The notes below the pieces were generated by a model, which saw only the letters and a program-made list of their open reading frames with translations, did not search any database and was not told the origin of the DNA. From Nanobdellota archaeon (lineage in GTDB: Archaea > Nanobdellota > Nanobdellia > Pacearchaeales > GW2011-AR1), in assembly GCA_038046005.1 (NCBI GenBank), contig JBBSXB010000003.1, positions 17,328-81,327 of the forward strand: 64,000 nucleotides of DNA, in the 5' to 3' direction. Below are positions 2,299 through 41,620 of this stretch, one piece after another. The first letter of the stretch is position 1, and each line of letters opens with the position of its first letter. The translations under genes were made by a program, and so were the position numbers.

Positions 2299-3585
2299 TT
2301 AGTAATAACTTTCTCCGAATTCTCCAGATTTTTCAGGCTTCTTTCCAATTAATACAATCAAAACAATTAACAATACGATAAAGATTATCGCAAGGACAAC
2401 TGTTAAGATAACAATTGGGCTAGTTTTTGTTGCTGATTCTGTTGCTGTTTTTCCAGATGTGTTTCCGCTGAACTCTATTGAGTTTAGGGTTTCACCTTTC
2501 AAGCTGAATACATTAACTTTGAAGTTGTATTCTCCTTGTGTATTTGGATCGACAGTAACGGTTTTACTTCCGCCAGCAGGCACGAAAACGATTGTATCGC
2601 TTAGTGTAGCCGGTGATTCTGCAACAAGTCTGTAACCAATAACGCTGTCAGTTGGGTTTACAAGCCAGATGCTGTTTCCAGATTTGAAAACAGTGCTGTC
2701 AAAATCGTTTTGGACAACAACTTCAACATTTTGTGTTGATGTAGTGTCTCCGTTTTGGACAGTTATTTCTAGGTTGTACTTACCAGCTTGAACGTCGTAT
2801 GGTAATGCTAGGTTCAATGTACCGCTTACGCTTTCAACGCCGTCTTTAACACACTTTCTGTGAAGTGTATCATATCCATATGGAAGATCAGCTGCGTCAC
2901 CCTCAAGTTGACCATAATCAGCATTGTCATTGCAAGTTATTGCAACAAGATCTCCAAAGTAGCTGCTCTTTTGAAGTCCGAGAGTAGCTATTTTAGCTGT
3001 TACGTAAAGGTCGTTTAAGTCATTGTAACCAATGTTTTTCAAAACAATTTGAACTGGGAATGTTTTTCCAGCTTGTAATGTTTGATCAACACTTACAGAC
3101 TTTATAGCAACATCGTATGTAGCTCTTTGGATTCTAAGTGGTATTACGATTTCGTCATTTGCATACTTATCGCCTTCAATCTTTATCTTAAGACTGAATT
3201 CGTTACTTAGATCATCCTTAAGCTCGTTAGGGACAGTTATTGTCAATGTCTTTTTGTAGCTCTTATTCTGTTCAACATTGAAAAGAGTTGAGTCTACATT
3301 AGCATTGGCACCATGTCCTCTGATTTCAGCGTTTATCATGACATTTCTGTCATATTGAAGGGCAGTAAACCACACGTCAACTTGAACACTGTCACCAGCT
3401 TGGACACTTAAAGAATCGCTTGATGCAGTACCGTAAACAGTAGTTCCATCAACATCAACTCTTACACTGTTAGCTAAGTCACTAGCGCCTACGCTAGAAA
3501 CTACAACCAATATTGCCACAACCGCTAGGAAAGAAACCAAATATTTTTTGGCTTCCATTTTTTGTTTCATTAGATTTAATTGCAC
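2299..3585 (-). CDS. cell-surface protein with CARDB-like repeats; N-terminal signal/anchor and C-terminal TM anchor
   Basis: Hydrophobic N-terminus, repeated beta-rich segments (e.g. QAGKTFPVQIVLKNIGYNDLNDLYV), and a C-terminal hydrophobic stretch PIVILTVVLAIIFIVLLIVLIVLIGKK followed by a charged tail. Confidence 0.6.
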   Translation of the reverse strand: MQLNLMKQKMEAKKYLVSFLAVVAILVVVSSVGASDLANSVRVDVDGTTVYGTASSDSLSVQAGDSVQVDVWFTALQYDRNVMINAEIRGHGANANVDSTLFNVEQNKSYKKTLTITVPNELKDDLSNEFSLKIKIEGDKYANDEIVIPLRIQRATYDVAIKSVSVDQTLQAGKTFPVQIVLKNIGYNDLNDLYVTAKIATLGLQKSSYFGDLVAITCNDNADYGQLEGDAADLPYGYDTLHRKCVKDGVESVSGTLNLALPYDVQAGKYNLEITVQNGDTTSTQNVEVVVQNDFDSTVFKSGNSIWLVNPTDSVIGYRLVAESPATLSDTIVFVPAGGSKTVTVDPNTQGEYNFKVNVFSLKGETLNSIEFSGNTSGKTATESATKTSPIVILTVVLAIIFIVLLIVLIVLIGKKPEKSGEFGESYY

Positions 3586-7854: not shown

Positions 7855-7907
7855 AACTAGATTAATTGTGCCGGCTTTTTAAGCATTACTGATATTGAGA
7901 ATATGAA

Positions 7908-8294
7908 TTAATTTTTTTGAGCGTATTTTCTATTTATGAAATTTTCTATACTTGAACTAAATTCAGGAATAATTTCTTTCCATTTATCTGCTCCAATTGG
8001 TACAGTGATTACTTTTGCACCAAGTTCCATTGCTTCCTTTTTGAAGGCTTCAGACAAACCTTCACCAACAAGGACAATAGACCCAATACCTTTTTCATTA
8101 GCTTTTCTTAAAATCTCAACCTTTCTTTCGCTTAAGTCCTCCATAACAAGTACGTCATAATCTAACCTTCTTAATCTGCCATTTACTTTATTTTGTTTAG
8201 ACACAACATCATATTTAAAATCTCCAACTTCTCTTCTTAACATTACTCCTAAAACAGAATTGTAAACGCCAAAATAAAGTACATTTTCATCCAT
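7908..8294 (-). CDS. hypothetical protein (128 aa) downstream of EF-1alpha, where S10 is normally found
   Basis: Intact ORF; the sequence is not S10-like. Confidence 0.4.
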   Translation of the reverse strand: MDENVLYFGVYNSVLGVMLRREVGDFKYDVVSKQNKVNGRLRRLDYDVLVMEDLSERKVEILRKANEKGIGSIVLVGEGLSEAFKKEAMELGAKVITVPIGADKWKEIIPEFSSSIENFINRKYAQKN

Positions 8295-10797: not shown

Positions 10798-12987
10798 TTA
10801 CTGATTCTCAGCCAAACCTTTTCTGCTTCTTATTTTCCTTATTACTTCATCCTGCAATGAGGTGGGTGTTTTTTCGAAGAACTGATCAGATAAAGATGAA
10901 ACTCCTCTTCCTTCTGTTGCAGATCTTAAATCAGAACTCCATCCAAGCATTTCAGCGACGGGAAGTTTTGCTTCTATTGTGACTCCAGAATCATCTTGCT
11001 TGACATCTAAAAGTTGTCCTCTCTTGCTGGATATTAACTTATTCACTTCTCCCAAAAATGAAGTTGGCGCTTCTATTATGTGAACTTGAATAGGCTCAAA
11101 CATTGAGGGTGATGCTTCTTTCATTGCTTCTTTGATTGACTCTCTCACTGCTGGATAAACTTGAGCCGGACCTCTGTGAATTGCATCCTCGTGAAGTTTT
11201 ATATCTGCTAAAGAAATTTTCATTTTCATGCATGGCTCTCTTGCCAAAGGTCCTTGGTTTATAACCATTTCAAACGCGTCTAAAATCATATCTATTACTT
11301 CTCCAAGATGGACTTCTCCTCTTGTTTCATCCACTAACATATTCCCTTTATAGACATCTCTTATACCTCTTATAGAATCTCCATCCCATCCTAATTTTGA
11401 CAGCACATCAAACGCTTCCTGACTTTTCTTTTTTATTCTTCCCTCTCTCAATTCTCCGTTTCTTATCGCCTGATAAACATCATCTTCTAATGGCTCAACG
11501 CTCATAAAGAAGCTGTTATGTTTGTTTGGGCTTCTTCCTTCAACAGCTCCTGATTTTTTTAAAACTGTTTCTCTATAAACAATAATTGGTGAAGAAGTCC
11601 TTATTGATAACCCTTTTTCAGTCCTTATTCTGTTTTCAATTATTTCAAGATGCAATTCTCCCATTCCAGACATAAGATTTTCTCCCGTCTGCTCATTGAT
11701 TTCAATTTTTATAGACGGATCTTCTTTTCCAACTTTTTTCAATATTTCAACAAGCTTTGGCAAGTCAGCTGTTTTTTCAACTTCAATGGCTTTAGTGATA
11801 ACCGGTTCAAAAATATGTTTTAATTCTTCGAATGGAGTTTGTGGCTCTAATGTGATTGTTTCTCCGGCTTCTCCCGCAATACCAGAAATAGCCAAGACAT
11901 TTCCTGCAACAATTTCATCAATTTGTTCTGGTTTTATTCCATTATACACAAAAAGCTGTTGAATCTTTTGTCTTTGTTTTGCAAGATTAAGATAAACTTC
12001 CGTGCCAGGTTTTAATGTTCCTGAGAAAAGTCTTCCGGCAGAAATTTCTTTTCCAGATCTTGGCTCAATAACAATTCTTGTAACAACAAACGCAATCTCT
12101 CCTTTTGGATTGCAATTTTTTAAATCTTTTCCGAAATCAGTTTCAGAATCTCCATGCCATATTTTTGGAATTCTATACTTCTGAGCTTCAATTGGATTTG
12201 GAAGATGCTTTACTACCATGTCTAAAAGAACTTCGTAAAGAGGCGCGTTTTTCCAGCACCACTCTTTTCTATCCTCTTCACTCATTTCATAAAGTGCTAA
12301 AATGTCCTTGAAATTAATTCCCTTTTTTTGCATGAATGGAACAGACATTGCCCAGTTTTCCCTTGCTGATCCGAATGCAACGCTTCCATTTTTGATGTCA
12401 ACAGCCCAACTTTCTTTAAATTCACTCTCCGCCACTTTTCTTATTAATTCATTGAATTCGTGGAAAATTTCAACAAATCTTTGCTGCATTTGTTCCGGAG
12501 TCAGTTTCAATTCTTTTATTAATCTGTCAACTTTATTTATGAACAAAACAGGTCTTACTCTTTCTCTTAATGCTTGTTTGACTACTGTTTCTGTTTGTGG
12601 CATTATCCCCTCAACAGCACATACCAAAACAATAGTTCCGTCTATGGCCCTCATAGCTCTTGTAACATTTCCGGAGAAATCGACGTGACCAGGAGTGTCA
12701 ATCAAGTTAATCAGATATTCTTCCCCATGATAGTCATGAACCATTGAGACATTTGCAGCGTCAACTGTCATAAGTCTTTCCTGTTCATCAGAATGTTGCC
12801 ATGTTGCCATTCCTGCTTCAAGGTCTCCTGCAGATTTCGAGGCCATGTAACCGGATGCGGCAAGAAGATTGTCTGTCAAAGCAGTTTTACCATGATGAAT
12901 ATGTGCCGAAGTCGCAATATTCCTAATATTCTTTTGGTACTTATTGATTCTCTTTATCTTGTCAAATTGTGATTCTTTTTCTGCCAT
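10798..12987 (-). CDS. fusA: translation elongation factor EF-2
   Basis: AHIHHGKTALTDNLL G-domain, DTPGHVDF; 729 aa. The diphthamide-region-like GEVHLGEV... segment is present. Confidence 0.95.
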   Translation of the reverse strand: MAEKESQFDKIKRINKYQKNIRNIATSAHIHHGKTALTDNLLAASGYMASKSAGDLEAGMATWQHSDEQERLMTVDAANVSMVHDYHGEEYLINLIDTPGHVDFSGNVTRAMRAIDGTIVLVCAVEGIMPQTETVVKQALRERVRPVLFINKVDRLIKELKLTPEQMQQRFVEIFHEFNELIRKVAESEFKESWAVDIKNGSVAFGSARENWAMSVPFMQKKGINFKDILALYEMSEEDRKEWCWKNAPLYEVLLDMVVKHLPNPIEAQKYRIPKIWHGDSETDFGKDLKNCNPKGEIAFVVTRIVIEPRSGKEISAGRLFSGTLKPGTEVYLNLAKQRQKIQQLFVYNGIKPEQIDEIVAGNVLAISGIAGEAGETITLEPQTPFEELKHIFEPVITKAIEVEKTADLPKLVEILKKVGKEDPSIKIEINEQTGENLMSGMGELHLEIIENRIRTEKGLSIRTSSPIIVYRETVLKKSGAVEGRSPNKHNSFFMSVEPLEDDVYQAIRNGELREGRIKKKSQEAFDVLSKLGWDGDSIRGIRDVYKGNMLVDETRGEVHLGEVIDMILDAFEMVINQGPLAREPCMKMKISLADIKLHEDAIHRGPAQVYPAVRESIKEAMKEASPSMFEPIQVHIIEAPTSFLGEVNKLISSKRGQLLDVKQDDSGVTIEAKLPVAEMLGWSSDLRSATEGRGVSSLSDQFFEKTPTSLQDEVIRKIRSRKGLAENQ

Positions 12988-24821: not shown

Positions 24822-25379
24822 TTAGACAATTTTTCTTTCTCCAATAAAATTGACTTTAGAAGGATTGTGAACTACCCAAGAATCATGAATCTTACGATAT
24901 TTTCCTTCTCCCCCTTCAAGTGCAAGTAGCCCATCATACCCTAGAGATTCTATATGTCTAGAAAAAATATCTCCATGGCTAAATGTTATTTCTTTAATTC
25001 CAGATTTAATATATTTCTTATTTCTTATATCTTCAATAGCTTTTTTTGTTGATGCTACAACATACCATTTTTTAGCATGTTTTAATTTGTCGGTTAAAAC
25101 TTCTAAAAAGCTAGCCATTACTATATCCAGAGTCTTTATTTCTCTAAAATCTAAAAAATTTAATCCATCCACACTTACAGAATAAACAACTGGCGTTTTT
25201 GTATTTTGTGATCTAAGTTTGGCATAACCCTCAGCAGATTCTATATCAGAAGTAAGGTAGATGCCCTCTCCAATAGTGTCATCATATGCCTTTCTAAACA
25301 CTCTAATTCCCAATTCTCCTGAGCCATGATATAGGGGTTCTATTCCTCTTACGATTGAAACCAAATTATTTTTTAACAT
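24822..25379 (-). CDS. hypothetical protein (about 185 aa)
   Basis: Intact ORF. The track start at 25415 would overlap tRNA-Lys, so an internal Met (about 25379-25391) is the more likely start. Confidence 0.35.
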   Translation of the reverse strand: MLKNNLVSIVRGIEPLYHGSGELGIRVFRKAYDDTIGEGIYLTSDIESAEGYAKLRSQNTKTPVVYSVSVDGLNFLDFREIKTLDIVMASFLEVLTDKLKHAKKWYVVASTKKAIEDIRNKKYIKSGIKEITFSHGDIFSRHIESLGYDGLLALEGGEGKYRKIHDSWVVHNPSKVNFIGERKIV

Positions 25380-25390
25380 ATTCAAAAACA

Positions 25391-25464
25391 TGGCCCCGAT
25401 GGGATTTGAACCCACGACACCCGGATTAAAAGTCCGGTGCTCTACCAGGCTGAGCTACGGAGCC
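25391..25464 (-). tRNA. tRNA-Lys (anticodon UUU), CCA not encoded
   Basis: Reverse complement GGCTCCGTAGCTCAGCCTGGTAGAGCACCGGACTTTTAATCCGGGTGTCGTGGGTTCAAATCCCATCGGGGCCA folds as a cloverleaf: 7-bp acceptor stem with one G-U pair, D arm, CCGGA/TCCGG anticodon stem with loop CUUUUAA, T arm GTGGG/CCCAT with TTCAAAT loop. Confidence 0.85.
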
Positions 25465-30650: not shown

Positions 30651-31160
30651 ATGGAACTTGACATACTTACGAGATTCAAATCTGATGATGGTAGAGTCTA
30701 CGTATTCAATCATAATTTTGATAGTGTTTACAAAAATATTCCAAACGCAGTAAGGCATTTTAATGACACAATTCACAAGGAGAGCCTGGAAGAAGTTCGA
30801 GGCCGTGCATTTAGCTTAGTCAATGCAATAATGTGGGGAAGTGATGAGGGAGATAAAATGATAGACTTTTTTGGAATAGGTCCAAATTATTCTTTAGATG
30901 GTGATTGGAATTCAAACCCTGATGTTTTTTCTTGGGTGACTAGAAATGGGTTAATTGTTCCCGGTAAAAATATTTCGGAAGTTACATGTGGTAAAGGATT
31001 AATTATCTTGGGAGAAGAAGAAAGATATAGAAGATCAACACTTGAGGACAGTTATCTTTCAATACCTCCAAAAATAGGAGAGTTAAAGTTAATGATTGGT
31101 GACTATGCGACGCCGGAAGAAAGAGAAAATTTGCTTAGCCTAATTGCTTCTCAAAAATAA
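30651..31160 (+). CDS. hypothetical protein (169 aa)
   Basis: Intact ORF; no motif. Confidence 0.35.
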   Translation: MELDILTRFKSDDGRVYVFNHNFDSVYKNIPNAVRHFNDTIHKESLEEVRGRAFSLVNAIMWGSDEGDKMIDFFGIGPNYSLDGDWNSNPDVFSWVTRNGLIVPGKNISEVTCGKGLIILGEEERYRRSTLEDSYLSIPPKIGELKLMIGDYATPEERENLLSLIASQK

Positions 31161-31552
31161 ACAGCGTCATAAACTTTTGAAAGAACATTATTTATTATCA
31201 TTTCTTTTGCAGCAGTCATTCCTTCTTCATTCATAATCAAGCTTTCTTTCGGTCCTATGCGGTATTTGTCAATAACTAAAACAAGATTGTCGCAGTTTTT
31301 CGGCAAATTTTCAGAAATTTTATTCATCAAGTCAAGATCATTCACTCTTATTGTAAAAAACAATCTGTAATCAACAATGCTAACGTCAATATTGTCTATT
31401 GGAAAATCAACAAAATCAATGACATTCCTTAAATGGTTGTGTTGTGTATGCTTAAATTTTATTTTATGGAACTTAGCCCAGTGTTCTATTTGTGCTATCA
31501 AAACTAAAGCGTGTTTTTTTATAAATAACTTTTGACAAGGTTTATAAATCAT
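31151..31552 (-). CDS. hypothetical protein (133 aa)
   Basis: Intact ORF convergent with the previous one; no motif. Confidence 0.35.
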   Translation of the reverse strand: MIYKPCQKLFIKKHALVLIAQIEHWAKFHKIKFKHTQHNHLRNVIDFVDFPIDNIDVSIVDYRLFFTIRVNDLDLMNKISENLPKNCDNLVLVIDKYRIGPKESLIMNEEGMTAAKEMIINNVLSKVYDAVYF

Positions 31553-31613
31553 AAAAAATTTATTTACTAACTTCTCTTATCAAAATTAAGAAATTAAATA
31601 AGAGGGATTTAAC

Positions 31614-31865
31614 ATGGATGACAAAAAATATCAAATGCCAGAAGATAGAGGCCATAAAACTATAGATAAAATACCTGAAGATCTTAGACCAGCCTCCACT
31701 AGAGAAGTTTATCCTCTTGGACAGCCAGGTGCAGCAATGCGGGAAGCCCACAATTACTTTTTTAGCACACTTAAAGGAATGGGTCTTATAACTTTTGATT
31801 ATGAGACCTATACTAGAAAACACATGGGGCAGCCTAAAGGCGGAAAAGACGATGACGATAAATAA
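31614..31865 (+). CDS. hypothetical protein (83 aa)
   Basis: Intact ORF upstream of the beta-propeller gene; acidic C-terminus. Confidence 0.3.
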   Translation: MDDKKYQMPEDRGHKTIDKIPEDLRPASTREVYPLGQPGAAMREAHNYFFSTLKGMGLITFDYETYTRKHMGQPKGGKDDDDK

Positions 31866-31930
31866 CCAATAGCTTCAATTACCTTTGAACCCTTCGCTTC
31901 ATTTATAAATAAGTTGTTCTTTAGTTTGTC

Positions 31931-34222
31931 ATGGCCGACGACAAAAAATTCATACTGATGAATCTTGATGATGAAAGATCAAAGAAAGTTGCAGAAGTAA
32001 TAAGCAATCCAACTTGCAAAAAGATTCTCAATTATCTTGCAGACAATAAAGAAAAGTCTGAGGAAGATATCGCCAAGGATTTAGGTATTCCTTTGAATAC
32101 TGCAGAATATAATTTAAAGAAATTAGTTGAGTCTGGCCTTGTTGAAAAATCAAAAAACTTTTTCTGGAGCAAAAAAGGCAAAAAAATAAATCTTTATAAG
32201 CCTGCAAACAGACATATAGTCATATTCCCAAAAAAGAGGCCCGACATGAACCTATTAAAGACAATTGTCCCGATACTGATAATTGGGGCTGCTTTAATTG
32301 CAATAATTGCTTTACTTTCCAATAATGACCAAACTTCAAGCCAGGAGCTAAACAAATTTTCTTCATTAGATGACCTTAATAAATTTTTGAAAGACAATCA
32401 GGTTGAGCAGGGAAGAGGATCAATGTTTGAGTCTGCTGGTGTAGCAAAAGGAACAGTAGCATCTGCATCTGGTGCGGCGGATTCAGCAGCACCTAGCGCA
32501 CAGGGTGCAAGCGAGTATTCTTCAACAAACATACAGGTAGAGGGAGTAGATGAATCAGATGTAATAAAAAACGATGGAAAATACATTTATGTTGTTTCAG
32601 GAAATAAGGTTGTAATTGTTGATGCTTTTCCAGCAGACAGCATGAAAGTTTTAAGTGAAATAAATCTTAGTGATTCTGTAGGGGAAATTTTTGTTAATGG
32701 GAATAGGCTTGTTGTTTTTACAAGACAGTATTCTCCAATTCTTTATGGGGGAATAAGATGCATGGCAGTAGGATGTATAATGCCCCCTTATCGTGATGAA
32801 TCAAAGACGGGAGTTTTTATTTATGATATTTCAAACAGACAAGATCCTGTTTTAGATGATAATATCTCTCTAACTGGAGATTATGTTTCATCAAGAATGA
32901 TTGATAATTACGTTTACTTAGTCGCAAACCAGTATGCTTATCCAGAAGGTGTTCTTCCAGCCTATGATAAAAATGGAGAAACAAGTGTTGTTAAAGCAGA
33001 TGAAGTTTACTACTCTCCTATAAGAGATCAGTCTTTCCAATTTACAAACATACTCACGATTAACATTAATAATGGGGAAACATCTGAAAAAACAGTTTTA
33101 ACAGGTTCTTCTCAGACAATTTTTGTTTCAAAAGAAAACATTTACACAACCTATACCAAATATCCTTATTGGTATGGTGGAAGAGAGTCAGATTTAGAAA
33201 AAACAATAATAAATAAATTTTCAATAGATAAAGACGAAGTTCAATTTTTGTCTAGTGGAGAAGTTTCTGGGCATTTATTAAATCAATTTTCAATGGATGA
33301 AGACAAAGATTATTTTAGAATTGCAACAACAATTTCAGGATATGTCAATAACAGAGACACTTCAACAAACAATGTTTACGTTTTAGATAAGGAATTAAAT
33401 GTTGTTGGAAAAATAGAGGGAATAGCCCAGGGTGAAAGCATTTATTCTGTAAGATTTATTGGGGACAGGGCCTATATGGTTACATTCAAGCATGTTGATC
33501 CTTTATTTGTTATAGGATTGGAGGATCCAACAAACCCAACCCTTTTAGGAAAGCTAAAAATTCCGGGTTATTCAGAATATCTTCATCCTTTAGATGAAAC
33601 GCATCTTATAGGTGTTGGTAAAGAAGTTGATGAAAGCATTGATGCAGACAAAGTTCATACAGAGGGGGCTGTTTACTACACAGCCATCCAAGGAGTAAAG
33701 CTTGCAATATTTGATGTTTCTGATGTCAATAATCCAATAGAAATGTACAAAGAGGTTATAGGGGACAGGGGAACACAAAGCCCTGCAGAAACAGATCATA
33801 AAGCATTTTTGTTTGACAAGAAAAGAAATTTGTTAGTTATACCAATAACTGTAGCAGAGCTTAAGCCTGGCCAGTCAAAAGATATGGAGGGTGAGTTCAC
33901 ATTCCAAGGACTTTATGTTTATAATGTAAACCTTGAAGAAGGGTTCAATCTTAAAGGAAAAATAACCCACTATGAAGATGACGCGGCATTTAAGAAATCA
34001 GGGTATTACTTTTATGGCGGAGATAAAAGCATTTCAAGATCTTTATACATGGATGATGTTTTGTATTCATTCTCCCCTTCAATGATAAAGGCAAATGACC
34101 TTAATACGCTAGACAAGATAAACTCTGTTGATTTGCCATATGAAAGCACAAACTACTATAATTACTGTGGTGGTGGAGGAATTGCAGTAGCAGAAGTCGT
34201 TACTGGTGTTGCTGTGAAATAA
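31931..34222 (+). CDS. membrane-tethered ArsR-like wHTH protein with large extracytoplasmic beta-propeller-like domain
   Basis: N-terminal ArsR-type HTH (KKILNYLADNKEKSEEDIAKDLGIPLNTAEYNLKKLVESGLVEK), a single TM (LLKTIVPILIIGAALIAIIALL), then about 600 aa of beta-rich repeats typical of archaeal secreted beta-propeller proteins. Confidence 0.6.
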   Translation: MADDKKFILMNLDDERSKKVAEVISNPTCKKILNYLADNKEKSEEDIAKDLGIPLNTAEYNLKKLVESGLVEKSKNFFWSKKGKKINLYKPANRHIVIFPKKRPDMNLLKTIVPILIIGAALIAIIALLSNNDQTSSQELNKFSSLDDLNKFLKDNQVEQGRGSMFESAGVAKGTVASASGAADSAAPSAQGASEYSSTNIQVEGVDESDVIKNDGKYIYVVSGNKVVIVDAFPADSMKVLSEINLSDSVGEIFVNGNRLVVFTRQYSPILYGGIRCMAVGCIMPPYRDESKTGVFIYDISNRQDPVLDDNISLTGDYVSSRMIDNYVYLVANQYAYPEGVLPAYDKNGETSVVKADEVYYSPIRDQSFQFTNILTININNGETSEKTVLTGSSQTIFVSKENIYTTYTKYPYWYGGRESDLEKTIINKFSIDKDEVQFLSSGEVSGHLLNQFSMDEDKDYFRIATTISGYVNNRDTSTNNVYVLDKELNVVGKIEGIAQGESIYSVRFIGDRAYMVTFKHVDPLFVIGLEDPTNPTLLGKLKIPGYSEYLHPLDETHLIGVGKEVDESIDADKVHTEGAVYYTAIQGVKLAIFDVSDVNNPIEMYKEVIGDRGTQSPAETDHKAFLFDKKRNLLVIPITVAELKPGQSKDMEGEFTFQGLYVYNVNLEEGFNLKGKITHYEDDAAFKKSGYYFYGGDKSISRSLYMDDVLYSFSPSMIKANDLNTLDKINSVDLPYESTNYYNYCGGGGIAVAEVVTGVAVK

Positions 34223-34225
34223 TTT

Positions 34226-34255
34226 TATTATTTTTATTTATTTTATAATTTCATT
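34226..34255. repeat. AT-rich repeat copy 1 (ATTTTTATTTATTTTATAATTT)
   Basis: 22-nt exact match to 37918..37939 and 16/17 match to 35545..35561; lies between the convergent stops of the beta-propeller gene and the AbiEi-like gene. Confidence 0.5.
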
Positions 34256-34821
34256 ACTCTTTCTCTAATTTTTAGAGGATATTTTTTTAAATAATTTAGC
34301 AATTTTTGCTTATCAATTTTCTTTTTTATTGTATTCAAGGTTTTTTTATCCATTTTCTGATGGAAAACAACCATATCTATAAAGGTCTTTTCTAAATCTG
34401 AATAAGGAAGATAAAAATTACCTTCTTCTATATAATCTGATCCAAAAAAATATTTTTTATTAATATTCCTTAACAAAATATTTCTGCCCATTAAACTTCG
34501 TACGCCTCTTCGAACTTTTTTTGTGGTGATGATAACTGGAATTGTTTCTTGCTCCCAAATTCCATAATGGCTCAGAGCACTTTGCAAACCAAGATAAGCC
34601 GGCTTAAAAGAGAAAACTGCCAAAGATATTTCATTATGTTTAGTGTAAACTCCCTTGCCTATTTTTTTTATTTTTCCCTTTTTTAACAGATTGTAAACCA
34701 ACAATTTAGCGTAATTGCTATTTTTGGATTTGCCAATTATTCTCTCTAACGACTTAAAATCTAAAATCGGGCTTTTCTCAAATAAGGCTTCTATTTTTTC
34801 TAAATGTATTTGTTTTCCCAT
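34243..34821 (-). CDS. AbiEi-like antitoxin / COG5340-type transcriptional regulator (type IV TA)
   Basis: 192 aa; N-terminal wHTH-like region ending in the KKGKIKKIGKGVYT (RGvY-type) motif of AbiEi N-domains. Overlaps the upstream nucleotidyltransferase gene by 22 nt. Confidence 0.5.
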   Translation of the reverse strand: MGKQIHLEKIEALFEKSPILDFKSLERIIGKSKNSNYAKLLVYNLLKKGKIKKIGKGVYTKHNEISLAVFSFKPAYLGLQSALSHYGIWEQETIPVIITTKKVRRGVRSLMGRNILLRNINKKYFFGSDYIEEGNFYLPYSDLEKTFIDMVVFHQKMDKKTLNTIKKKIDKQKLLNYLKKYPLKIRERVMKL

Positions 34822-35453
34822 TTTCGTTTTATGTAATTAATCATTTCATCTGCAGAAGGAACTATTCCTTCAAGCAAAATAACCTTTAAATCTTCCTCGT
34901 CAATTGGTTTTTTATAATTATTAATCAAGTTCCCGACTTCTTTTATTGTTCCAGGATTCTCTACAATTTTTAGCAAAAAGAAAACATCCCACAAATCCCT
35001 GACTTTAAATCTCTTCAAATATGTGTTGGATTTTTCAGATAAAAAAGATTCAGGAGTTAGGCTGTAGATCGACACAATATTTCCATCAGACATTTCATAG
35101 TCACAAATTATTCCAGAAATTTTTTGAAAAGTTGCTTCTAATCTTATCAACAGCCTGTTTAACTCTAATTCAGAATAAACGCTTGTTTCTGAAATTTTTC
35201 TCTTTTTAATCTCAAATCCCGCTTTTTTTAAATTTTCAAATAAAATATCTATTTTTTTCCTGTCTTTAGGGAGATAAAAATCCAAATCTTCTGAGAACCT
35301 CTTTCCATCATAGCATCTCCAAATAGCTGTTCCTCCATGCAAAACAGCCTTATCAAAAACAGAGTAAACTTCTTTTACAATCAAATCCTGAGCATAAGCT
35401 ATCTTCCTATGGATTTCTCGTTTTAACTTTGTTTGCAAAGGTATCTTTATCAT
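34800..35453 (-). CDS. AbiEii/DUF1814-family nucleotidyltransferase toxin (type IV TA)
   Basis: HGGTAIWRCYDGKRFSEDLDFYL matches the GGTAL...R.SeDIDf nucleotidyltransferase motif of AbiEii. Confidence 0.7.
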   Translation of the reverse strand: MIKIPLQTKLKREIHRKIAYAQDLIVKEVYSVFDKAVLHGGTAIWRCYDGKRFSEDLDFYLPKDRKKIDILFENLKKAGFEIKKRKISETSVYSELELNRLLIRLEATFQKISGIICDYEMSDGNIVSIYSLTPESFLSEKSNTYLKRFKVRDLWDVFFLLKIVENPGTIKEVGNLINNYKKPIDEEDLKVILLEGIVPSADEMINYIKRKWENKYI

Positions 35454-35500
35454 ACTATCTACAAAAGGTATACATTTATATATCTTTCGTTAACATCACA

Positions 35501-35567
35501 TTTCAGCAAGTGTAACAGCAGTGTTCAAAATCAAATAATTTTTTATTATTTTTATTTATTTTAAAAT
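35501..35567. repeat. direct repeat copy A: duplicate of the SIMPL 3' coding end plus AT-rich tail
   Basis: tttcagcaagtgtaacagcagtgttcaaaatcaaataa plus T-rich tail matches 37874..37940 over about 65 nt with 5 mismatches; the two mismatches inside the coding part are synonymous (GTA/GTG Val). Confidence 0.65.
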
Positions 35568-35571
35568 CTTA

Positions 35572-36270
35572 CTAATTTTTTTGGTCGTGATACATCACCC
35601 ATCTATTGAGATACATAAAAGGAATGTCTATAATACCAACTAGCCACTTAACCAATGTTAATCCAATAATCAATGGAAGTATTGGTTGAACCCCTGCAAA
35701 TGCAATAGTAACAAATAAAATTGAATCTATCGCCATTGATGGTATGGAACTAAGCGCATTCCTTGCCCATAAATGTTTACCTTTAGTTACTTTTTTAAAA
35801 ATAGAAAAGATGTAAGCATCTAAATTTTCACTTATCAAGAAAGCTATCCATGATGCGAAAATAATTCTCGGAACTTGGCCGATTATTAATGATAATGCGT
35901 TTTGGTTGGTCCAAAACGGAGCAGAAGAAAAAGAAAGAACTAACCATGAAAAAAATGCTACTGCAACTTGAGCTATGAATGCAATAAAAATCATTTTATG
36001 TGTTTCTTTCCTTCCAAATTTTTCATTTACAATATCCGTCATCAAGAATGTAACAGAAAAGATCAAAACTGCCGCTGGTGCATAAAAAGTTGCAAAGCCT
36101 AAATCAAAACTTGCAATTTTAACTGCAGCAATATTACTAAATGTTATAAAGGCAATATAAAAGCCAATTATTGCATCTGGCCTCTGATATCTTCTAACAT
36201 ATAAAGAACCAATAATTGTAACAGCGCTAATCAAAATTATCCAAAGAATAATTAATATTAAGTCATTCAT
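35572..36270 (-). CDS. DUF165/YhhQ-family membrane transporter (queuosine-precursor transporter family)
   Basis: Six-TM protein colinear with YhhQ (FLMTDIVNEKFGRKETHKMIF, VPRIIFASWIAFLISENLDAYIFSIFK). Confidence 0.6.
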   Translation of the reverse strand: MNDLILIILWIILISAVTIIGSLYVRRYQRPDAIIGFYIAFITFSNIAAVKIASFDLGFATFYAPAAVLIFSVTFLMTDIVNEKFGRKETHKMIFIAFIAQVAVAFFSWLVLSFSSAPFWTNQNALSLIIGQVPRIIFASWIAFLISENLDAYIFSIFKKVTKGKHLWARNALSSIPSMAIDSILFVTIAFAGVQPILPLIIGLTLVKWLVGIIDIPFMYLNRWVMYHDQKN

Positions 36271-36304
36271 TGTGGATTAAACAAAATAGTATTTATTAAC
36301 TTTA

Positions 36305-36958
36305 TCATTCCAAAACATAGAGTTTCCAATTAAGTTTTTGAAATTTCTCTTCAGAAACTTGAGCTATCTTATAATTATATTTTTTGATCAATTCTAAAAG
36401 TTTCTTTTCATTAGCCACATCACCACTAGGGATAAAGACTTTTCCATTTTTAGTCAAGTGATTTTTTACATCTTTTAACAATCTTTCATGAAGTTTAAAA
36501 CCCGTGTCAAACAAAAAATGTCCAACTTCACTTTTATAATCTACATCCGCAAAAGGCAATTGAGAGATTATTAAGTCAAATTTTTCTTCCTTTTTAATAT
36601 TTTCAAACAAGTCACTTTTTCTTACTTCAATTATTTTATTTAGTTTATGAAAAGTGACATTTTCTTTTGCATTTTGTAAAGAATTATTGTCAATGTCTAT
36701 TGCTAAAACTTTTCTTGCACCCCTTTTGGCAGCGATTATGGCTTGAACACCAGTCCCTGTCCCAACATCTAAAACAACGCCTGCATTTCCTGGAATTCTT
36801 TTTGCAGTCATTTCAGAAGAAAATGAAAATGGTGAATCAACAGGAAAAACATTTTTGTGAATAATTATCTTATACCCTAAAAAATCAACAATTCGCTTTT
36901 TCTGCGTTTGAATGTCTTTAATAAAATTTAACGTAATTTCTTGTGGTTGTTTAGCCAT
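36305..36958 (-). CDS. class I SAM-dependent methyltransferase (HemK/Mtq2-like small-domain MTase)
   Basis: VLDVGTGTGVQAIIAA SAM-binding motif I and an acidic motif II; SQLPF in place of the NPPY-type motif IV. Confidence 0.65.
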   Translation of the reverse strand: MAKQPQEITLNFIKDIQTQKKRIVDFLGYKIIIHKNVFPVDSPFSFSSEMTAKRIPGNAGVVLDVGTGTGVQAIIAAKRGARKVLAIDIDNNSLQNAKENVTFHKLNKIIEVRKSDLFENIKKEEKFDLIISQLPFADVDYKSEVGHFLFDTGFKLHERLLKDVKNHLTKNGKVFIPSGDVANEKKLLELIKKYNYKIAQVSEEKFQKLNWKLYVLE

Positions 36959-37091
36959 TTAATACCTAAATGTTTATGATTTATAATATTATTCTCTTAT
37001 AATTTCTTCTCAACTTAAGTACTATAAACATCAATTGGCCTTCCACCAAAAACTTTAAAAACTATGGCTTCTATAGTTACTATAGGGTAAA

Positions 37092-37304
37092 ATGGAAATA
37101 ACAACAATTCAATTAAGCAAGGAAACTAAAGACAAAATATCCTCTTTTGGGACAAAAGGAGAGAGTTATGATGAAATTATTAGAAGGATTTATTCTATAG
37201 CAGTTAAAGAGCAGTTGAGAGATTTTCTGATGTCTGATGAGGGATTTGTTCCTATTGAAGATGCCATAAAAGAGGCAGAGAAAAAATGGCCAAGCAACAA
37301 TTGA
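37092..37304 (+). CDS. hypothetical small protein (70 aa)
   Basis: Intact ORF ending just upstream of, and in a different frame from, the SIMPL reading frame. Confidence 0.35.
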   Translation: MEITTIQLSKETKDKISSFGTKGESYDEIIRRIYSIAVKEQLRDFLMSDEGFVPIEDAIKEAEKKWPSNN

Positions 37305-37401
37305 TGCAACTCCAGATTTAGTAAAAGTTTATTTTAATGCTGAGACAAGTGGAGCAACAAGCCAGGAAGCTAAAGACAAAAATTCTGAAATTGTTGATAA
37401 C

Positions 37402-37911
37402 ATGATAACAGCTCTTGTTAAAGATGGATTTGAAAGAAAAGACATCCAGACGCAGGGGTTCAACATTTATCCAGACTATTCTTGGGATAACAACAAACAA
37501 ACTCTTAAAGGATACAAAGCTACACACTCAATCGTTGTACAGCTATCAACAGCCCAGACAGACAAGATAGGCAAAGTGATAGATGATGGGGTTGATTCTG
37601 GTGCTTTGATAAGCTACATAAATTTTGAGCTTAGCACTGAAAAGCAGAATGAATACAAAGCTCAGGCAATAAAACTCGCTGCAGAAGATGCAAGAGTAAA
37701 AGCAACGGCACTTGCAAGTGGATTGCAAAAAGAACTTGGAAGTCTTGTATCTGTGTCGGACAACAGTTTTGATTATAGGCCTTGGCCAATGTATGCTTCT
37801 GCAGATTCTGGAGGAGCAAGTGTTGCAATGGCAAAAGAAGCCGCAACAAATATACAGCCAGGAACACAACAGGTTTCAGCAAGTGTGACAGCAGTATTCA
37901 AAATCAAATAA
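37402..37911 (+). CDS. SIMPL/DUF541-domain protein, apparently lacking signal peptide and N-terminal strand (possible 5'-truncated gene)
   Basis: Colinear with SIMPL proteins from ...PDLVKVYFNAETSGATSQEAKDKNSEIV onward. The frame is open back to a stop at 37267, but no ATG/GTG/TTG exists upstream of Met at 37402 and no signal peptide is encoded. Confidence 0.55.
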   Translation: MITALVKDGFERKDIQTQGFNIYPDYSWDNNKQTLKGYKATHSIVVQLSTAQTDKIGKVIDDGVDSGALISYINFELSTEKQNEYKAQAIKLAAEDARVKATALASGLQKELGSLVSVSDNSFDYRPWPMYASADSGGASVAMAKEAATNIQPGTQQVSASVTAVFKIK

Positions 37912-37940
37912 TTTATTTTTTATTTTTATTTATTTTATAA
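37874..37940. repeat. direct repeat copy B (authentic SIMPL 3' end plus downstream AT-rich tail)
   Basis: See copy A. The tail ATTTTTATTTATTTTATAATTT is also present at 34226..34255. Confidence 0.65.
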
Positions 37941-38372
37941 TTTTTTTTCAATAAGAACACCTTTTTCACTAGGAACAAGCCCGACTTTTTCGTACAATTT
38001 CATTGGCCTAGAATCTTTTTCAACAATTCCCATAAATTTTTTGAATCCTCTTTCTTTATAGATCTCAAATATTTTATCTAAAACAATTGGAGTAATATAT
38101 TTTCCTTGAAATCTCTCTGCAATAGCTAGCTCTTCTCCAAATGCAACCTCTCCAGGACACATGAAATTGGGATTTATAGCTATAAAACCAGCAACCTGGT
38201 CGTCATACCTTATTACATAAAGATCACAATTTTTATTATAAAATTGAATTTTTTTCATTGCCTTTTCAAGAGTCCAACTCTCATCATATGGTGGTTTTGA
38301 AAATTCACTTGCATATATTTTAGCAATTCTTTCAAGCTCATTTTGAGCAGCTATTCTTAATTCTGTGACCAT
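37935..38372 (-). CDS. GNAT-family N-acetyltransferase
   Basis: 145 aa with acetyl-CoA binding motif-like segment (KERGFKKFMGIVEKD..., QVAGFIAINP...). Confidence 0.7.
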   Translation of the reverse strand: MVTELRIAAQNELERIAKIYASEFSKPPYDESWTLEKAMKKIQFYNKNCDLYVIRYDDQVAGFIAINPNFMCPGEVAFGEELAIAERFQGKYITPIVLDKIFEIYKERGFKKFMGIVEKDSRPMKLYEKVGLVPSEKGVLIEKKL

Positions 38373-38861: not shown

Positions 38862-38983
38862 GAAAAATGGTATTACCTCTTCTTTAAAAATCTTTCTTCC
38901 TCCGTTACACCACCCTCTTTTTCTTAATATAACAAATTTTATATAGTTACACTACCTTGTAGAAAAAGACAAAAAGAGAGGTT

Positions 38984-41620
38984 TTGAAAATGAATTTTTA
39001 TAAGAGGTACATACATAAAAACGGCAAGAAGCTTGGTCCATATTATTATTCCAACAAAAAAGTTGACGGAAAAGTAATATCAACTTATCTTGGAACAGAA
39101 CCGCCGAGCAAATTTAGGCAATTAAAGCTTCCTAAAAACACGTTGAAGTTTGCGATAATAACTCTCTCTACGATAAGTCTAGTCTTATTGGTCAATCTTA
39201 TTTTTCATTTACAGTTATTCTCAACAGGAAACATTCCATTATCAACAATAGATGAGCAAAAAACTCCAAAAGACATAGTTAGCGGATTAAATAATACAAA
39301 CATAACAAATAGAACTCAGTCTAATCCCATTCAGCCAACAATTAACACTATTCAAAGTCAAGCAGTTATTAATCAGCCGGTAAAATGGTCGAAAGAAATT
39401 CAGCTTGAAAAACCAGGAAAAATTATAGTTCAATTGCCAAAAGAAGCCCAAAATATATTAGTTTACAAAGTAAACTCAGATGGTCAAAAAGAAAAAGTTG
39501 ACGATAAGCAAATATCAATTACAGCAAAAGTCTCATCTGAAATAAACATCGATCAAACACGTGAAAAAAAAGAAAGCCCTATTTTAAAATTCTTTAAAAA
39601 AATAATAAGCTTCATAACAGGAAAAGCAGTTACAATTCAAGACACTAAAGAAATAAAAGAAATCACTATAAATGAAAACGCAAAAGAATACGTAATTGAA
39701 TATGAAACATCTTCTCCTACAATAACAGAGCACGAATCAGCAAATGGTAAGACAATTATGCTCTCTAATGCTGGCAGCGTAAGCTATCAAAACGTTTTAG
39801 TTTTTACAAATATTCCAGAAACTCTGAATGTAAAAAGTCCAGAAAATATAAGGGTGTATTGGAATGAACAAAATAAATTTATCCAGCCTGAAAAAATTGA
39901 AGATAAGAACAGCAACGGAATTTATGACTACATAGAATGGATTGCTCCTTCTTCAGATAACCAAACTTTTGAGATAATTGTAATAACAAAAGCAGAACAT
40001 CTTGACGGCAATAGGCAATTCATCTCAGATATTTACGAACAAGTTAAAGATATTGATGATGTCTGGAGTGAGGAAATCCCTAGCCAAGATTATGTTAGGA
40101 TCACATTTGAAAAAAATCTCACAAACCAAAACGATATTACAATTTTCCCTAGAATTATTAAGGGAAACCCAAGAATAGAAGTTTATGAAGAAAATACAAA
40201 TAATTTAATCGCAGAATTCACAAATTTAACAAATGAAGAATACAATACAATTTATCTAACAAACTTGCAAGGAGAACAGGATGTCTTTGACTTAAAAATT
40301 ATTGGAGGCAGTTTAGAATTTGACCATATGATTGATCCGACAGCACAGCCAGGAGGAGCTCCAAGTTTAATGGCTCAAGTTTGTTCAGCAGAAGACAACG
40401 CAGCACAAGGTTCTTTTGCTGGAACTTGTGATGGAGTTTATCCAAGAGCTTGCGGTACTGGAAATGACCTTGTAAGTTGCAACGACAATATAAGAGAAAC
40501 CCATACTTCAGGCAACACTGCAAATTGGGGAGGAATTAAAATTCAAACCTTCAACAGTTCAGTAACTAACTGCCAATCAATAAGCCAGGTGTTTTTCTGT
40601 TACGAAAGATGGGTTTCTGCAGCAACAATAACGCAGTGTGATATTTCAGTGGACGCAAACGGCGGAGCCTCTTACAGCGTAGTTACCTCAATATGCCCCA
40701 CAACATTAATCAATTCTGGAATTACATGTACTGATGTAACTTCTTTGGAAAGCTGGGCATGTTCAAATTTCTTTGGTGCTTCCGGAACAAGAGCTTTGGC
40801 AAAATCAGAATTCAGGAAGTCTGGGGGCGGAGGAACAAGAACAATGAATTGGGATGTTTTTTACTTCAATATCACATATACGCAAGCAAATCAAGCTCCA
40901 ACAATAGACTCTATAAGTTCTATTCCTTCTTTGCCGCCTATTGAAAATAGTATGAGGCCGGTGACATTCAATGTTTCAGTTTCAGATCCAGATGGGTACA
41001 CAGACATAACAAGTGTTTCCGCACAATTCAGCATGGCGGGAGAACCAACAAGAATAAACTCGTCATGCACATTACAAAACGGAGCAGGGAACAATGCAAA
41101 CTATTCTTGCACTATCAACATGCAGTACTATGACAAAGATGGGAACTGGAATGTAACGATTAACGTGACAGACTCGCAATCACAGCAGGGCACAAACAAC
41201 TCACAAATATTTGTCTACCAACTTCTGAAAGCAATTGTGATAAATTCTCCAACGACTGGATTGACTTGGCCAGGTTTATCCCAAGGCCAGACAAATATTT
41301 TTTCCAACAACGACCCGACAGTAATTGAAAATACTGGAAATTATCAAGGGCCAATTTTAATAACAGCATTTGATCTTTTTGGGCAGACAAATCCAGCCCA
41401 GATAATTTCAGCATCTAACTTCATTGCAGGTCCAGCATCAGGTTTAGAGTGTACTGCAACACAACTCTCCAACAATTTCCAAATTTCAATAGCAGGAAGT
41501 AATTTGCTAAGAGGTCCTGGAGCACAAACACAAATTTATTATTGTTTAAATTCTGTTCCGTTAGTTTCATCTCAAGATTATTCAGCATCAGGAGCAAGCA
41601 GCTGGATTATTGCAGTATAA
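38984..41620 (+). CDS. large N-terminally anchored surface protein (878 aa), Asn/Thr/Ser-rich with Cys-rich central region
   Basis: Single TM near the N-terminus (FAIITLSTISLVLLVNLIF) and many N-x-S/T sequons. The C-terminal ~220 aa is paralogous to the next gene. Confidence 0.6.
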   Translation: MKMNFYKRYIHKNGKKLGPYYYSNKKVDGKVISTYLGTEPPSKFRQLKLPKNTLKFAIITLSTISLVLLVNLIFHLQLFSTGNIPLSTIDEQKTPKDIVSGLNNTNITNRTQSNPIQPTINTIQSQAVINQPVKWSKEIQLEKPGKIIVQLPKEAQNILVYKVNSDGQKEKVDDKQISITAKVSSEINIDQTREKKESPILKFFKKIISFITGKAVTIQDTKEIKEITINENAKEYVIEYETSSPTITEHESANGKTIMLSNAGSVSYQNVLVFTNIPETLNVKSPENIRVYWNEQNKFIQPEKIEDKNSNGIYDYIEWIAPSSDNQTFEIIVITKAEHLDGNRQFISDIYEQVKDIDDVWSEEIPSQDYVRITFEKNLTNQNDITIFPRIIKGNPRIEVYEENTNNLIAEFTNLTNEEYNTIYLTNLQGEQDVFDLKIIGGSLEFDHMIDPTAQPGGAPSLMAQVCSAEDNAAQGSFAGTCDGVYPRACGTGNDLVSCNDNIRETHTSGNTANWGGIKIQTFNSSVTNCQSISQVFFCYERWVSAATITQCDISVDANGGASYSVVTSICPTTLINSGITCTDVTSLESWACSNFFGASGTRALAKSEFRKSGGGGTRTMNWDVFYFNITYTQANQAPTIDSISSIPSLPPIENSMRPVTFNVSVSDPDGYTDITSVSAQFSMAGEPTRINSSCTLQNGAGNNANYSCTINMQYYDKDGNWNVTINVTDSQSQQGTNNSQIFVYQLLKAIVINSPTTGLTWPGLSQGQTNIFSNNDPTVIENTGNYQGPILITAFDLFGQTNPAQIISASNFIAGPASGLECTATQLSNNFQISIAGSNLLRGPGAQTQIYYCLNSVPLVSSQDYSASGASSWIIAV

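Follow-up and report, generated by a model that had tools for sequence, protein, structure and literature searches.

In the window, i.e. the whole 64-kb stretch of DPANN (Nanoarchaeota) population DNA from Hainich groundwater analyzed here, a T-rich sequence that we call the "tail" is present in three copies, accompanied by a truncated gene of the SIMPL family, a short remnant of the 3' end of such a gene, and an AbiE toxin-antitoxin pair. On balance, we consider it rather probable, though far from certain, that these repeats are relics of SIMPL alleles that carried their own terminator and were displaced stepwise from the locus, and that they are not recombination sites. An earlier, sequence-only reading of the same DNA had drawn attention to the direct repeats; all elements it described were found, at slightly corrected coordinates. 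The members of the repeat family are the following (nucleotide positions of the window, strand, description):

34223-34251, plus: tail copy 1, a T-rich, terminator-like tract right after the stop codon of a beta-propeller gene; contains the 18-nt core
35501-35538 (may reach back to 35494), plus: SIMPL 3' remnant, last 12 codons and stop; 92% identity to the SIMPL end and tail of the related locus L014
35539-35569, plus: tail copy 2, joined to the SIMPL remnant and followed by the 3' end of Vut_1; contains the 18-nt core
37285-37911, plus: 5'-truncated SIMPL gene (Pfam SIMPL, 9.4e-48, profile positions 11-205)
37912-37943, plus: tail copy 3, the predicted native terminator region of SIMPL, overlapped by the stop codon of a GNAT gene; orthologous to the tails behind the intact SIMPL genes of the related loci L014 and L017

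When up to three mismatches are allowed, the 22-mer ATTTTTATTTATTTTATAATTT occurs at 34230, 35548 (two mismatches) and 37922, and at no other site in the 64 kb; these three matches compare with a chance expectation of 0.06, and none of 100 shuffled sequences produced three. An 18-nt core, TTATTTTTATTTATTTTA, is identical in all three tails, each of which begins right behind an AAA TAA stop. The part that copy 1 has in common with the others is the tail only, the similarity to SIMPL upstream of AAATAA being at chance level. Copies 2 and 3 share coding sequence as well: the 38-nt 3' end of SIMPL is found at 35501-35538 and 37874-37911 (chance expectation 0.00), and the two versions differ at two third-codon positions (GTA/GTG and GTG/GTA), so the mismatches in the coding part are synonymous, as had been proposed. 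Relative to L014 and L017, the remnant and copy 3 have the derived states GTT TCA and ACA in common. Overall, about 6 of 68 positions are different between copies 2 and 3, whose tails are set apart by a 1-nt indel and a few substitutions. Private substitutions (AAAATCT) were found only in copy 2, whose T-run is also longer.

All 13 public contigs of the strain are identical to the window across the locus, with a single mismatch in one of them (L012); the repeat structure is thus not an assembly artefact. A strain-level presence/absence variant was sought among these 13 contigs, which carry the flanking proteins, and among the contigs with the exact methyltransferase (MTase) sequence, and all were identical to the window. 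Contigs that end at 37359 were considered as a possible variant and dismissed, because a 38-nt stretch at this point is identical to the co-occurring species represented by L017 and would branch the de Bruijn graph.

The longer SIMPL copy has lost its 5' end. Its homology to other SIMPL genes begins at 37285, which corresponds to residue 55 of the 262-aa relative P0001, codons 1-54 being gone, and what is left matches residues 55-262 of the L014 protein with 93.75% identity. The loss of start codon and signal peptide suspected previously is borne out: the hydrophobic N-terminal anchor is gone, and there is no in-frame ATG, GTG or TTG before 37402. Neither the missing 5' end nor a second sequence of SIMPL, or of the regulator gene that precedes it in relatives (HTH200, see below), is present anywhere in the window. 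On the branch leading to the window, SIMPL accumulated 26 synonymous and 14 non-synonymous changes (omega ~0.15), compared with omega ~0.06 on the branches of the relatives (Fisher p=0.063). This pattern is consistent with purifying selection along most of the branch, followed by neutral drift over approximately its last tenth, which would make the truncation recent; the neutral divergence since that event is estimated at ~2%. The last ~6 codons and the stop of the open reading frame (ORF) immediately upstream, which encodes a DUF7557 protein, are provided by SIMPL-derived DNA, and this places the breakpoint at 37283/37284. The 169-aa "SIMPL" ORF should accordingly be annotated as a truncated relic and not be counted as a functional gene.

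Close to this junction, a 23-nt direct repeat (37115-37137 and 37359-37381, 21 of 23 positions identical) lies in the same frame in both genes, encoding SKETKDKIS in DUF7557 and SQEAKDKNS in SIMPL. We rejected it as a trace of the junction, from which it is at least 75 nt away; its DUF7557 copy is located inside the stretch that matches the family profile, and we treat the similarity as chance.

The remaining features of the locus are:

31868-31930, plus: conserved promoter/operator upstream of the helix-turn-helix (HTH) gene, proposed left homology anchor
31931-34222, plus: 763-aa protein with HTH_20, transmembrane (TM) and beta-propeller regions (Pfam Beta_propel 1.3e-161, HTH_20 8e-11)
34243-34821, minus: AbiEi-like antitoxin/regulator, 192 aa (PADLOC AbiEi 5.3e-21; weak Pfam AbiEi_4)
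34800-35453, minus: AbiEii nucleotidyltransferase toxin, 217 aa (Pfam AbiEii, PF08843, 1.6e-12, above cut-off; PADLOC 5.8e-17)
35454-35491, minus: 38-nt promoter-like leader of AbiE with the shared motif AACGAAAGATATATAAAT, edge of the mobile unit
35572-36270, minus: Vut_1/DUF165 queuosine-precursor transporter (Pfam Vut_1 1.8e-45; TIGR00697 126 bits, above cut-off)
36305-36958, with a 37-nt promoter to 36995, minus: HemK2/PRK14968-like MTase (Pfam MTS 8.8e-17)
36996-37283 (ORF 37092-37304), plus: segment with the DUF7557/VapB-like ORF (Pfam DUF7557 1.1e-10; VapB-like 2-67/69)
37935-38372, minus: GNAT acetyltransferase in the variable slot behind the tail (Pfam Acetyltransf_1 8.7e-11; orthologue in L043)
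downstream of GNAT: g121, a 121-aa ORF
38984-41620: "big", a large conserved gene of 878 aa

Loci of relatives reveal what the undisturbed arrangement looks like. In L014-L016, whose SIMPL proteins are 94-95% identical to that of the window, and in L017, from a different, syntenic species sampled in the same well, the order is: promoter, a ~200-aa gene with HTH_20 and TM regions (HTH200), full-length SIMPL, one tail, one minus-strand gene, and "big". The minus-strand "slot" gene behind the tail is a 98-aa ORF (g98) in L014 and MTase in L017, where it starts 5 nt behind the tail and where positions 10822-11508 match positions 36309-36995 of the window at 90.7%. HTH200 is located directly upstream of SIMPL in 20 of 26 genome loci, i.e. 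in 20 of the 22 with enough upstream sequence. The combination of HTH200, intact SIMPL and a single tail in the relatives indicates that SIMPL genes of this clade natively have the tail as their 3' flank. We also note that HTH200 and SIMPL form a conserved gene pair, with HTH200 adjoining or overlapping the SIMPL start (e.g. L014 163-1559, L017 9399-10789).

The core of the tail was searched for within the window and in the loci of relatives L014-L046. It is present once in each close relative (the tail occurs once in the 20.8-kb and 8.9-kb loci of relatives), and its exact sequence was not found in the distant beta-propeller loci L044-L046 or in the SIMPL loci L018-L042.

The closest orthologue of the beta-propeller gene (92%) is in L043, in which the order is beta-propeller, one tail, Vut_1 (minus), GNAT (minus), and "big". 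At the DNA level, L043 545-2957 matches window 31860-34262 with 91% identity and L043 2918-3689 matches window 35541-36312 with 90%. Copy 1 is a 29/29 match to the single tail of L043, the left flank of that tail is that of copy 1, and its right flank, TACTAATTTTTTTGG, is that of copy 2. L043 has neither the AbiE pair nor the SIMPL remnant. Compared with it, the window possesses as extras the AbiE pair with the SIMPL remnant and a tail, a block of MTase, DUF7557, truncated SIMPL and tail 3 between Vut_1 and GNAT, and the 121-aa ORF. Segment 36996-37283, which carries DUF7557, shows no homology to L014, L017, L043 or L046 and has no counterpart in any relative. On its left side, the MTase segment has its junction at 36312/36313, and this point shares an ATTCC microhomology with the tail/MTase junction of L017.

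These comparisons support the part of the sequence-only reading that spoke of recombination scars, with intact HTH200-SIMPL-tail arrangements in L014 and L017 and a one-tail state devoid of AbiE and remnant in L043. It was also correct that copies 1 and 2 bracket the AbiEi/AbiEii pair (the AbiEi stop codon falls within copy 1) and that copies 2 and 3 bracket Vut_1 (DUF165), MTase, DUF7557 and SIMPL. In the alignment with relatives the AbiE pair is missing from L043, and the 2.4 kb between copies 2 and 3 do not form one module, since Vut_1 adjoins the single tail in L043 and the MTase is closest to that of L017.

The promoter region, about 60 nt long, is almost invariant upstream of HTH200 (L014, L017) and of the HTH-beta-propeller genes (window, L043, L046), and its ~28-nt near-invariant core, TTGAACCCTTCGCTTCATTTATAAATA, has one variable position, in L043. 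The HTH-beta-propeller allele is located where the relatives have HTH200-SIMPL. The combination of HTH_20 and beta-propeller is widespread in DPANN, and the HTH domain of the window is of the beta-propeller type from codon 1, which led us to discard a local fusion origin. Sites of the promoter in relatives are L014 101-162, L017 9342-9408, L043 ~555-616 and L046 ~7890-7940. The region carries a near-palindrome CTTCAA-N-TTGAAC and a TTTATAAATA box, and it is probably an autoregulatory operator of the common HTH_20 domain.

In order to describe the histories of individual segments, identity was measured at 4-fold degenerate sites, for which the chance level is ~0.31. The backbone genes ("big", g296, g169 and GNAT) exhibit values of 0.49-0.64 in all species pairs. 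Against L043 the beta-propeller gene reaches 0.83 (p=4e-11 vs the L043 backbone at 0.59), while Vut_1 is at 0.68 (p=0.0075 vs beta-propeller, p=0.13 vs backbone) and GNAT, at 0.58, shows backbone-level divergence. Against L017 the MTase is at 0.82 (p=1e-4 vs the backbone at 0.55; p=0.03 vs SIMPL, which is at 0.65), and against L014 SIMPL is at 0.75 compared with 0.52 for "big" (p=0.001). From this inequality between segments we conclude that the locus is a patchwork. The difference between beta-propeller and Vut_1 further implies that the DNA to the left of the AbiE block and that to its right have not had the same history, so that a simple insertion into an ancestor like L043 becomes less credible.

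The AbiE pair itself is a self-contained 1.24-kb mobile module. AbiEii lies upstream of AbiEi with a 22-nt overlap, and tail copy 1 supplies the last two codons and the stop of AbiEi (34243-34245, minus strand). Homologues of AbiEii with 73-89% identity are present in more than 120 DPANN protein clusters; those that we fetched are always trailed by a ~193-aa AbiEi gene, and their neighbourhoods are unrelated. DNA homology of ~83% covers 34256-35491 in two independent copies and 34272-35503 in two others (L047, L050, L051 and L052), i.e. the two genes plus the leader, and ends where the SIMPL remnant begins. The tail is missing from five other AbiE loci, which are not flanked by direct repeats either, so the duplication of the tail is not a by-product of AbiE insertion. 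A donor with the arrangement SIMPL-tail-AbiE was sought among the closest AbiEii homologues, which gave unrelated contexts, and a viral vector of the module was discarded, with no relative among viral contigs.

The pair resembles the type IV AbiE toxin-antitoxin systems in the combination of a DUF1814 nucleotidyltransferase with an AbiEi-family regulator, in the overlapping two-gene operon and in its occurrence in mobile or variable DNA. According to the published rule, the regulator gene precedes the nucleotidyltransferase gene (Dy et al. 2014, PMC3985639). By contrast, the order in the window and in all other fetched DPANN copies is toxin then antitoxin, and the conservation of the module across DPANN is unusually high (73-89% at the protein level, ~83% at the DNA level). 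The 22-nt overlap of the window is retained in most of the fetched copies (loci L047-L058), L050 and L051 being different. The protein conservation is far above that of SIMPL, mostly 59-74% among the more distant homologues listed. The module also contains an internal 25-nt direct repeat, AAAAAATAGAAGCTTTATTTGAGAA (coding strand), once at the start of AbiEi and once inside AbiEii (window 34775-34799 and 35233-35257). Its spacing is fixed at 458 nt; the copies in L055 (5702-5726 and 6160-6184) are 100% identical and those in other modules 80-92%. A role of this repeat in regulation is conceivable.

What was observed, namely the repeats, the loss of the SIMPL 5' end, the intact and the single-tail arrangements, the mobility of AbiE and the segment-wise divergence, can be reconciled by a scheme of stepwise displacement, for which we infer how anchoring worked, how many events there were and in which order they took place. 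The ancestral locus would have comprised the promoter, HTH200, SIMPL, the T-rich tail, one or two minus-strand slot genes and "big", with the tail terminating the plus-strand gene before it. DNA of co-occurring relatives would have recombined into this locus several times, the incoming piece pairing with the resident at the near-invariant promoter or further upstream and its other end joining illegitimately inside the resident SIMPL. Each such event would push a co-oriented, 5'-truncated SIMPL, together with its tail and slot genes, further downstream. One of them may have left SIMPL from codon 55 with tail 3, GNAT and g121 behind the MTase-DUF7557 segment. The latest would have brought the HTH-beta-propeller gene, tail 1 and the AbiE pair, with the join 38-45 nt before the resident SIMPL stop, leaving behind the remnant, tail 2 and Vut_1. 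Additional replacements of slot genes (MTase vs GNAT at a common TCATTCC junction) would also be needed. Both SIMPL relics are on the plus strand, 5'-truncated and downstream of the promoter common to both allele types. Tail 1 would equal the L043 tail because both stem from a recently shared beta-propeller allele, and the private changes and longer T-run of tail 2 would be expected of a resident copy of greater age that has ceased to terminate a gene.

Several points weigh against this reconstruction. No intermediate haplotype was found, all contigs of the strain being identical; the tail is carried by only three related lineages; the required donor with the order beta-propeller-tail-AbiE was not observed; and displacement leaves the first beta-propeller-tail junction without an explanation. 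The TCATTCC on the Vut_1 side is common to the window, where it is next to the MTase, and to L043, where it is next to GNAT, so that at least one further slot-gene replacement has to be assumed. The three derived coding states common to copies 2 and 3 would also fit an intragenomic duplication. Finally, the difference in divergence between beta-propeller and Vut_1 is based on 81 Vut_1 sites, and codon-usage constraint could contribute to it.

Among the other explanations, the integration of Campbell-type circles is the likeliest, though still improbable. An L043-like ancestor (beta-propeller-tail-Vut_1-GNAT) would have received by tail x tail crossover a circle with AbiE, 38-45 nt of SIMPL and a tail, derived by imprecise excision from the SIMPL locus of a relative, while a second circle, with SIMPL from codon 55, tail, MTase and DUF7557, would have entered between Vut_1 and GNAT via ATTCC. 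This would account for the fact that both extra blocks are circular permutations of the SIMPL-tail-(minus-strand gene) order of the relatives, for L043 being equivalent to the window minus the material between tails 1 and 2, and for the ATTCC microhomology at the MTase junction. It predicts, however, equal divergence from L043 for beta-propeller and Vut_1, where 0.83 and 0.68 are seen (p=0.0075), and forces the crossover into the last 1-2 nt of the tail, tail 1 being entirely of the L043 type and tail 2 having all of the variant positions. Moreover, the module encodes no recombinase, its other copies are devoid of hitchhiked flanks or repeats, and a SIMPL-tail-AbiE donor is missing among the AbiEii loci looked up. 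We find still less probable an intragenomic tandem duplication of the SIMPL-tail-slot region, with one copy mostly deleted and overwritten by AbiE, Vut_1 and DUF7557, and with L043 as a "cleaned-up" deletion derivative, a structure that recombination between tails 1 and 2 would indeed yield. The three derived coding states that copies 2 and 3 have in common against L014 and L017 speak for such a duplication, as do the colinearity of remnant-tail 2-(Vut_1)-MTase with SIMPL-tail-MTase of L017 and that of SIMPL-tail 3-slot-big with L014. Yet it accounts neither for tail 1 behind the beta-propeller gene nor for the segment-specific closest relatives and divergences; the ~6 differences in 68 positions between copies 2 and 3 exceed the ~2% neutral divergence since the truncation of SIMPL; and more events are needed than in the other models.

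A dedicated site of the att (attachment) or attC type, at which a recombinase encoded elsewhere inserts cassettes beside the tail, seems very improbable to us. What makes it attractive is that the six tails (three in the window and those of L014, L017 and L043) have, only a few nucleotides behind them, minus-strand genes of five different kinds, namely AbiEi, Vut_1, GNAT, the 98-aa ORF and MTase, and that the 18-nt core is invariant while nearby synonymous sites are near saturation. Tight junctions are, on the other hand, expected anyway in a compact genome in which only gene-preserving events survive. The tail occurs nowhere else in the 64 kb and only once in each of the relatives' loci, and is missing from the other AbiE copies. 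No integrase, transposase, or tyrosine or serine recombinase domain was detected in a domain scan of 28 ORFs (8 local genes and 20 further ORFs across the window), and there are no inverted repeats in or around the tails. Chance or convergence of three unrelated T-rich terminators has (T4-7 A)n tracts behind at least three other genes of the window to its credit, as well as the at least 120 stretches of very AT-rich public metagenome DNA that match a degenerate tail pattern. It is ruled out by the three matches of the 22-mer against 0.06 expected and the two of the 38-mer against 0.00, by other T-rich tails reaching only 14-15 of the 18 core positions, and by the SIMPL coding sequence included in copies 2 and 3 and the flanks that align with relatives. 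The degenerate pattern in question (TAATTT N0-8 TTATTTTTATTTATTTTA) came from a metagenome-wide search for the tail, which was abandoned: the loci fetched are very AT-rich, none of them encodes a relative of a local gene, and the pattern is of too low complexity.

The composition and position of the tails are those of a transcription terminator. Within 30 nt of TAA, all of them have ATTTTTA (T5) as well as runs of T4 and T3, and each separates a plus-strand gene, or relic thereof, from a minus-strand gene that converges on it. At 30-41% GC in 2-kb windows, the window is rich in AT, and among 66 crude gene calls three unrelated genes (ends 2299, 52369 and 54462, minus strand) have (T4-7 A)n tracts behind them that are 30-45 nt long and match 14-15 of the 18 core positions only. 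T5 is the minimum for archaeal termination, and consecutive oligo-dT tracts are natural (Spitalny and Thomm 2008, PMC2253867). The tail is therefore predicted to be, most likely, an ordinary archaeal oligo-T terminator, whose exact repetition is due to descent. It is like such terminators in the T5/T4 runs after a stop, the consecutive tracts, the AT-rich context and the end of a unit facing a convergent gene, but unlike a generic T-run it has an exact 18-nt core conserved across four lineages. The suggestion that the repeats are something other than ordinary terminators has thus to be divided: it fails for the style, which recurs after three unrelated genes, and holds for the exact repetition, which needs a history of recombination. 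Similarly, recurrence of the motif after many unrelated genes, named beforehand as grounds for giving up that suggestion, was found for the style only, and not for the sequence.

Integrative elements may duplicate the 3' end of a gene at their att sites, e.g. upon integration into tRNA genes, and the locus resembles such duplications in having co-oriented direct repeats that contain a gene 3' end and flank extra DNA. It differs in that there is no integrase, the fragment lies upstream of the gene copy, where an element would have it at its far end, the repeats have diverged from each other, and copies 2 and 3 do not enclose one single element. One foreign element with a corresponding empty site is seen for copies 1 and 2 (AbiE is absent from L043) but not for copies 2 and 3 (Vut_1 is at the tail of L043), and the five other AbiE loci do not carry the same repeat. 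As for integron attC sites, neither an inverted repeat nor an integrase was found, and the three copies are at one locus in 64 kb. As for target-site duplications of transposons, the repeats are 30-70 nt long and diverged, and neither terminal inverted repeats nor a transposase is present. The proposals of an att-like duplication and of a cassette boundary element consequently find no support: besides the lack of a recombinase among the 28 ORFs scanned and the position of the remnant upstream of the gene, other AbiE copies are free of repeats, the interval from copy 2 to copy 3 does not form a unit, and the tail is not palindromic.

A precedent for displacement with a homologous anchor at one end and an illegitimate join at the other, leaving orphaned 3' regions behind, is provided by the Rhs, CDI (contact-dependent growth inhibition) and T6SS (type VI secretion system) effector-immunity loci (Kirchberger et al. 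2017, PMC5361080; Jackson et al. 2009 as cited there). The locus described here is like these arrays in its conserved upstream anchor, in alleles that come from relatives, in the illegitimate downstream join, in the retention of older co-oriented 3' fragments together with the downstream genes, and in being a mosaic in which the closest relative changes from segment to segment. It is not a member of that group, as its genes (SIMPL, beta-propeller, transporter, MTase and GNAT) include no polymorphic toxin or immunity genes. Here a membrane-anchored SIMPL-domain protein is displaced by an HTH-TM-beta-propeller protein, the host belongs to DPANN, there are two relics, and the mechanism is deduced from sequence.

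DPANN archaea have tiny genomes, in which gene gain and loss are little understood. At this locus, the turnover of genes by recombination between related species of one aquifer can be followed at the nucleotide level: one allele would overwrite another while the chromosomal position stays fixed, a toxin-antitoxin module would arrive along with it, and the conserved extracytoplasmic gene SIMPL is lost, with datable relics left. The locus adds one more case to a known kind of genome mosaic and is no new class of mobile element or recombination site. A bolder and quite doubtful idea is that the invariant promoter and the terminator core act as portable homology arms of an exchangeable cassette position, at which co-occurring species swap HTH200+SIMPL and HTH-beta-propeller alleles of a surface sensor and stack toxin-antitoxin and accessory genes. 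If so, the tail would be conserved by selection for recombination as well as termination, possibly with a recombinase encoded elsewhere.

Several minor observations concern the surroundings. A candidate for a fourth, partial relic of the tail flank, TTATAATTTCTTCTCAACTTAAGTA at 36997-37022 just upstream of the MTase promoter, resembles positions 1585-1610 of L014 (TTATAACTTCTTCTCAATTAAGTA), located directly behind the L014 tail; BLAST gave no match at E<0.05, and we leave it as unproven. Upstream of the 878-aa gene, the motif GTTACAC(C/T)ACC occurs twice (38904-38914 and 38947-38957, ~43 nt apart); L014, L017 and L043 have kept both copies, and L046 has kept at least the downstream one. The motif probably serves that gene as a promoter or operator element. 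Between the 169-aa gene (g169) and the promoter, region 31151-31865 contains two small ORFs (133 aa, minus, and 83 aa, plus, with no Pfam match) that L014 and L017 lack, their 169-aa gene directly adjoining the promoter; they mark one more indel at this hotspot. No RNA gene was found in the region by Rfam matches at E up to 0.1. Further upstream, a 197-aa ORF (24822-25415, minus) shows weak matches, below the Pfam cut-offs, to ART-PolyVal (ADP-ribosyltransferase) and DUF3990, and its called start overlaps the tRNA-Lys gene at 25391-25464. In L017, 25 nt of one end of tRNA-Lys (TACCAGGCTGAGCTACGGAGCCAT) are duplicated ~50 nt away (3137-3161 and 3212-3236), while the equivalent in the window is a single copy (25440-25464); the L017 duplication has the look of a true att-like scar or of a small insertion.

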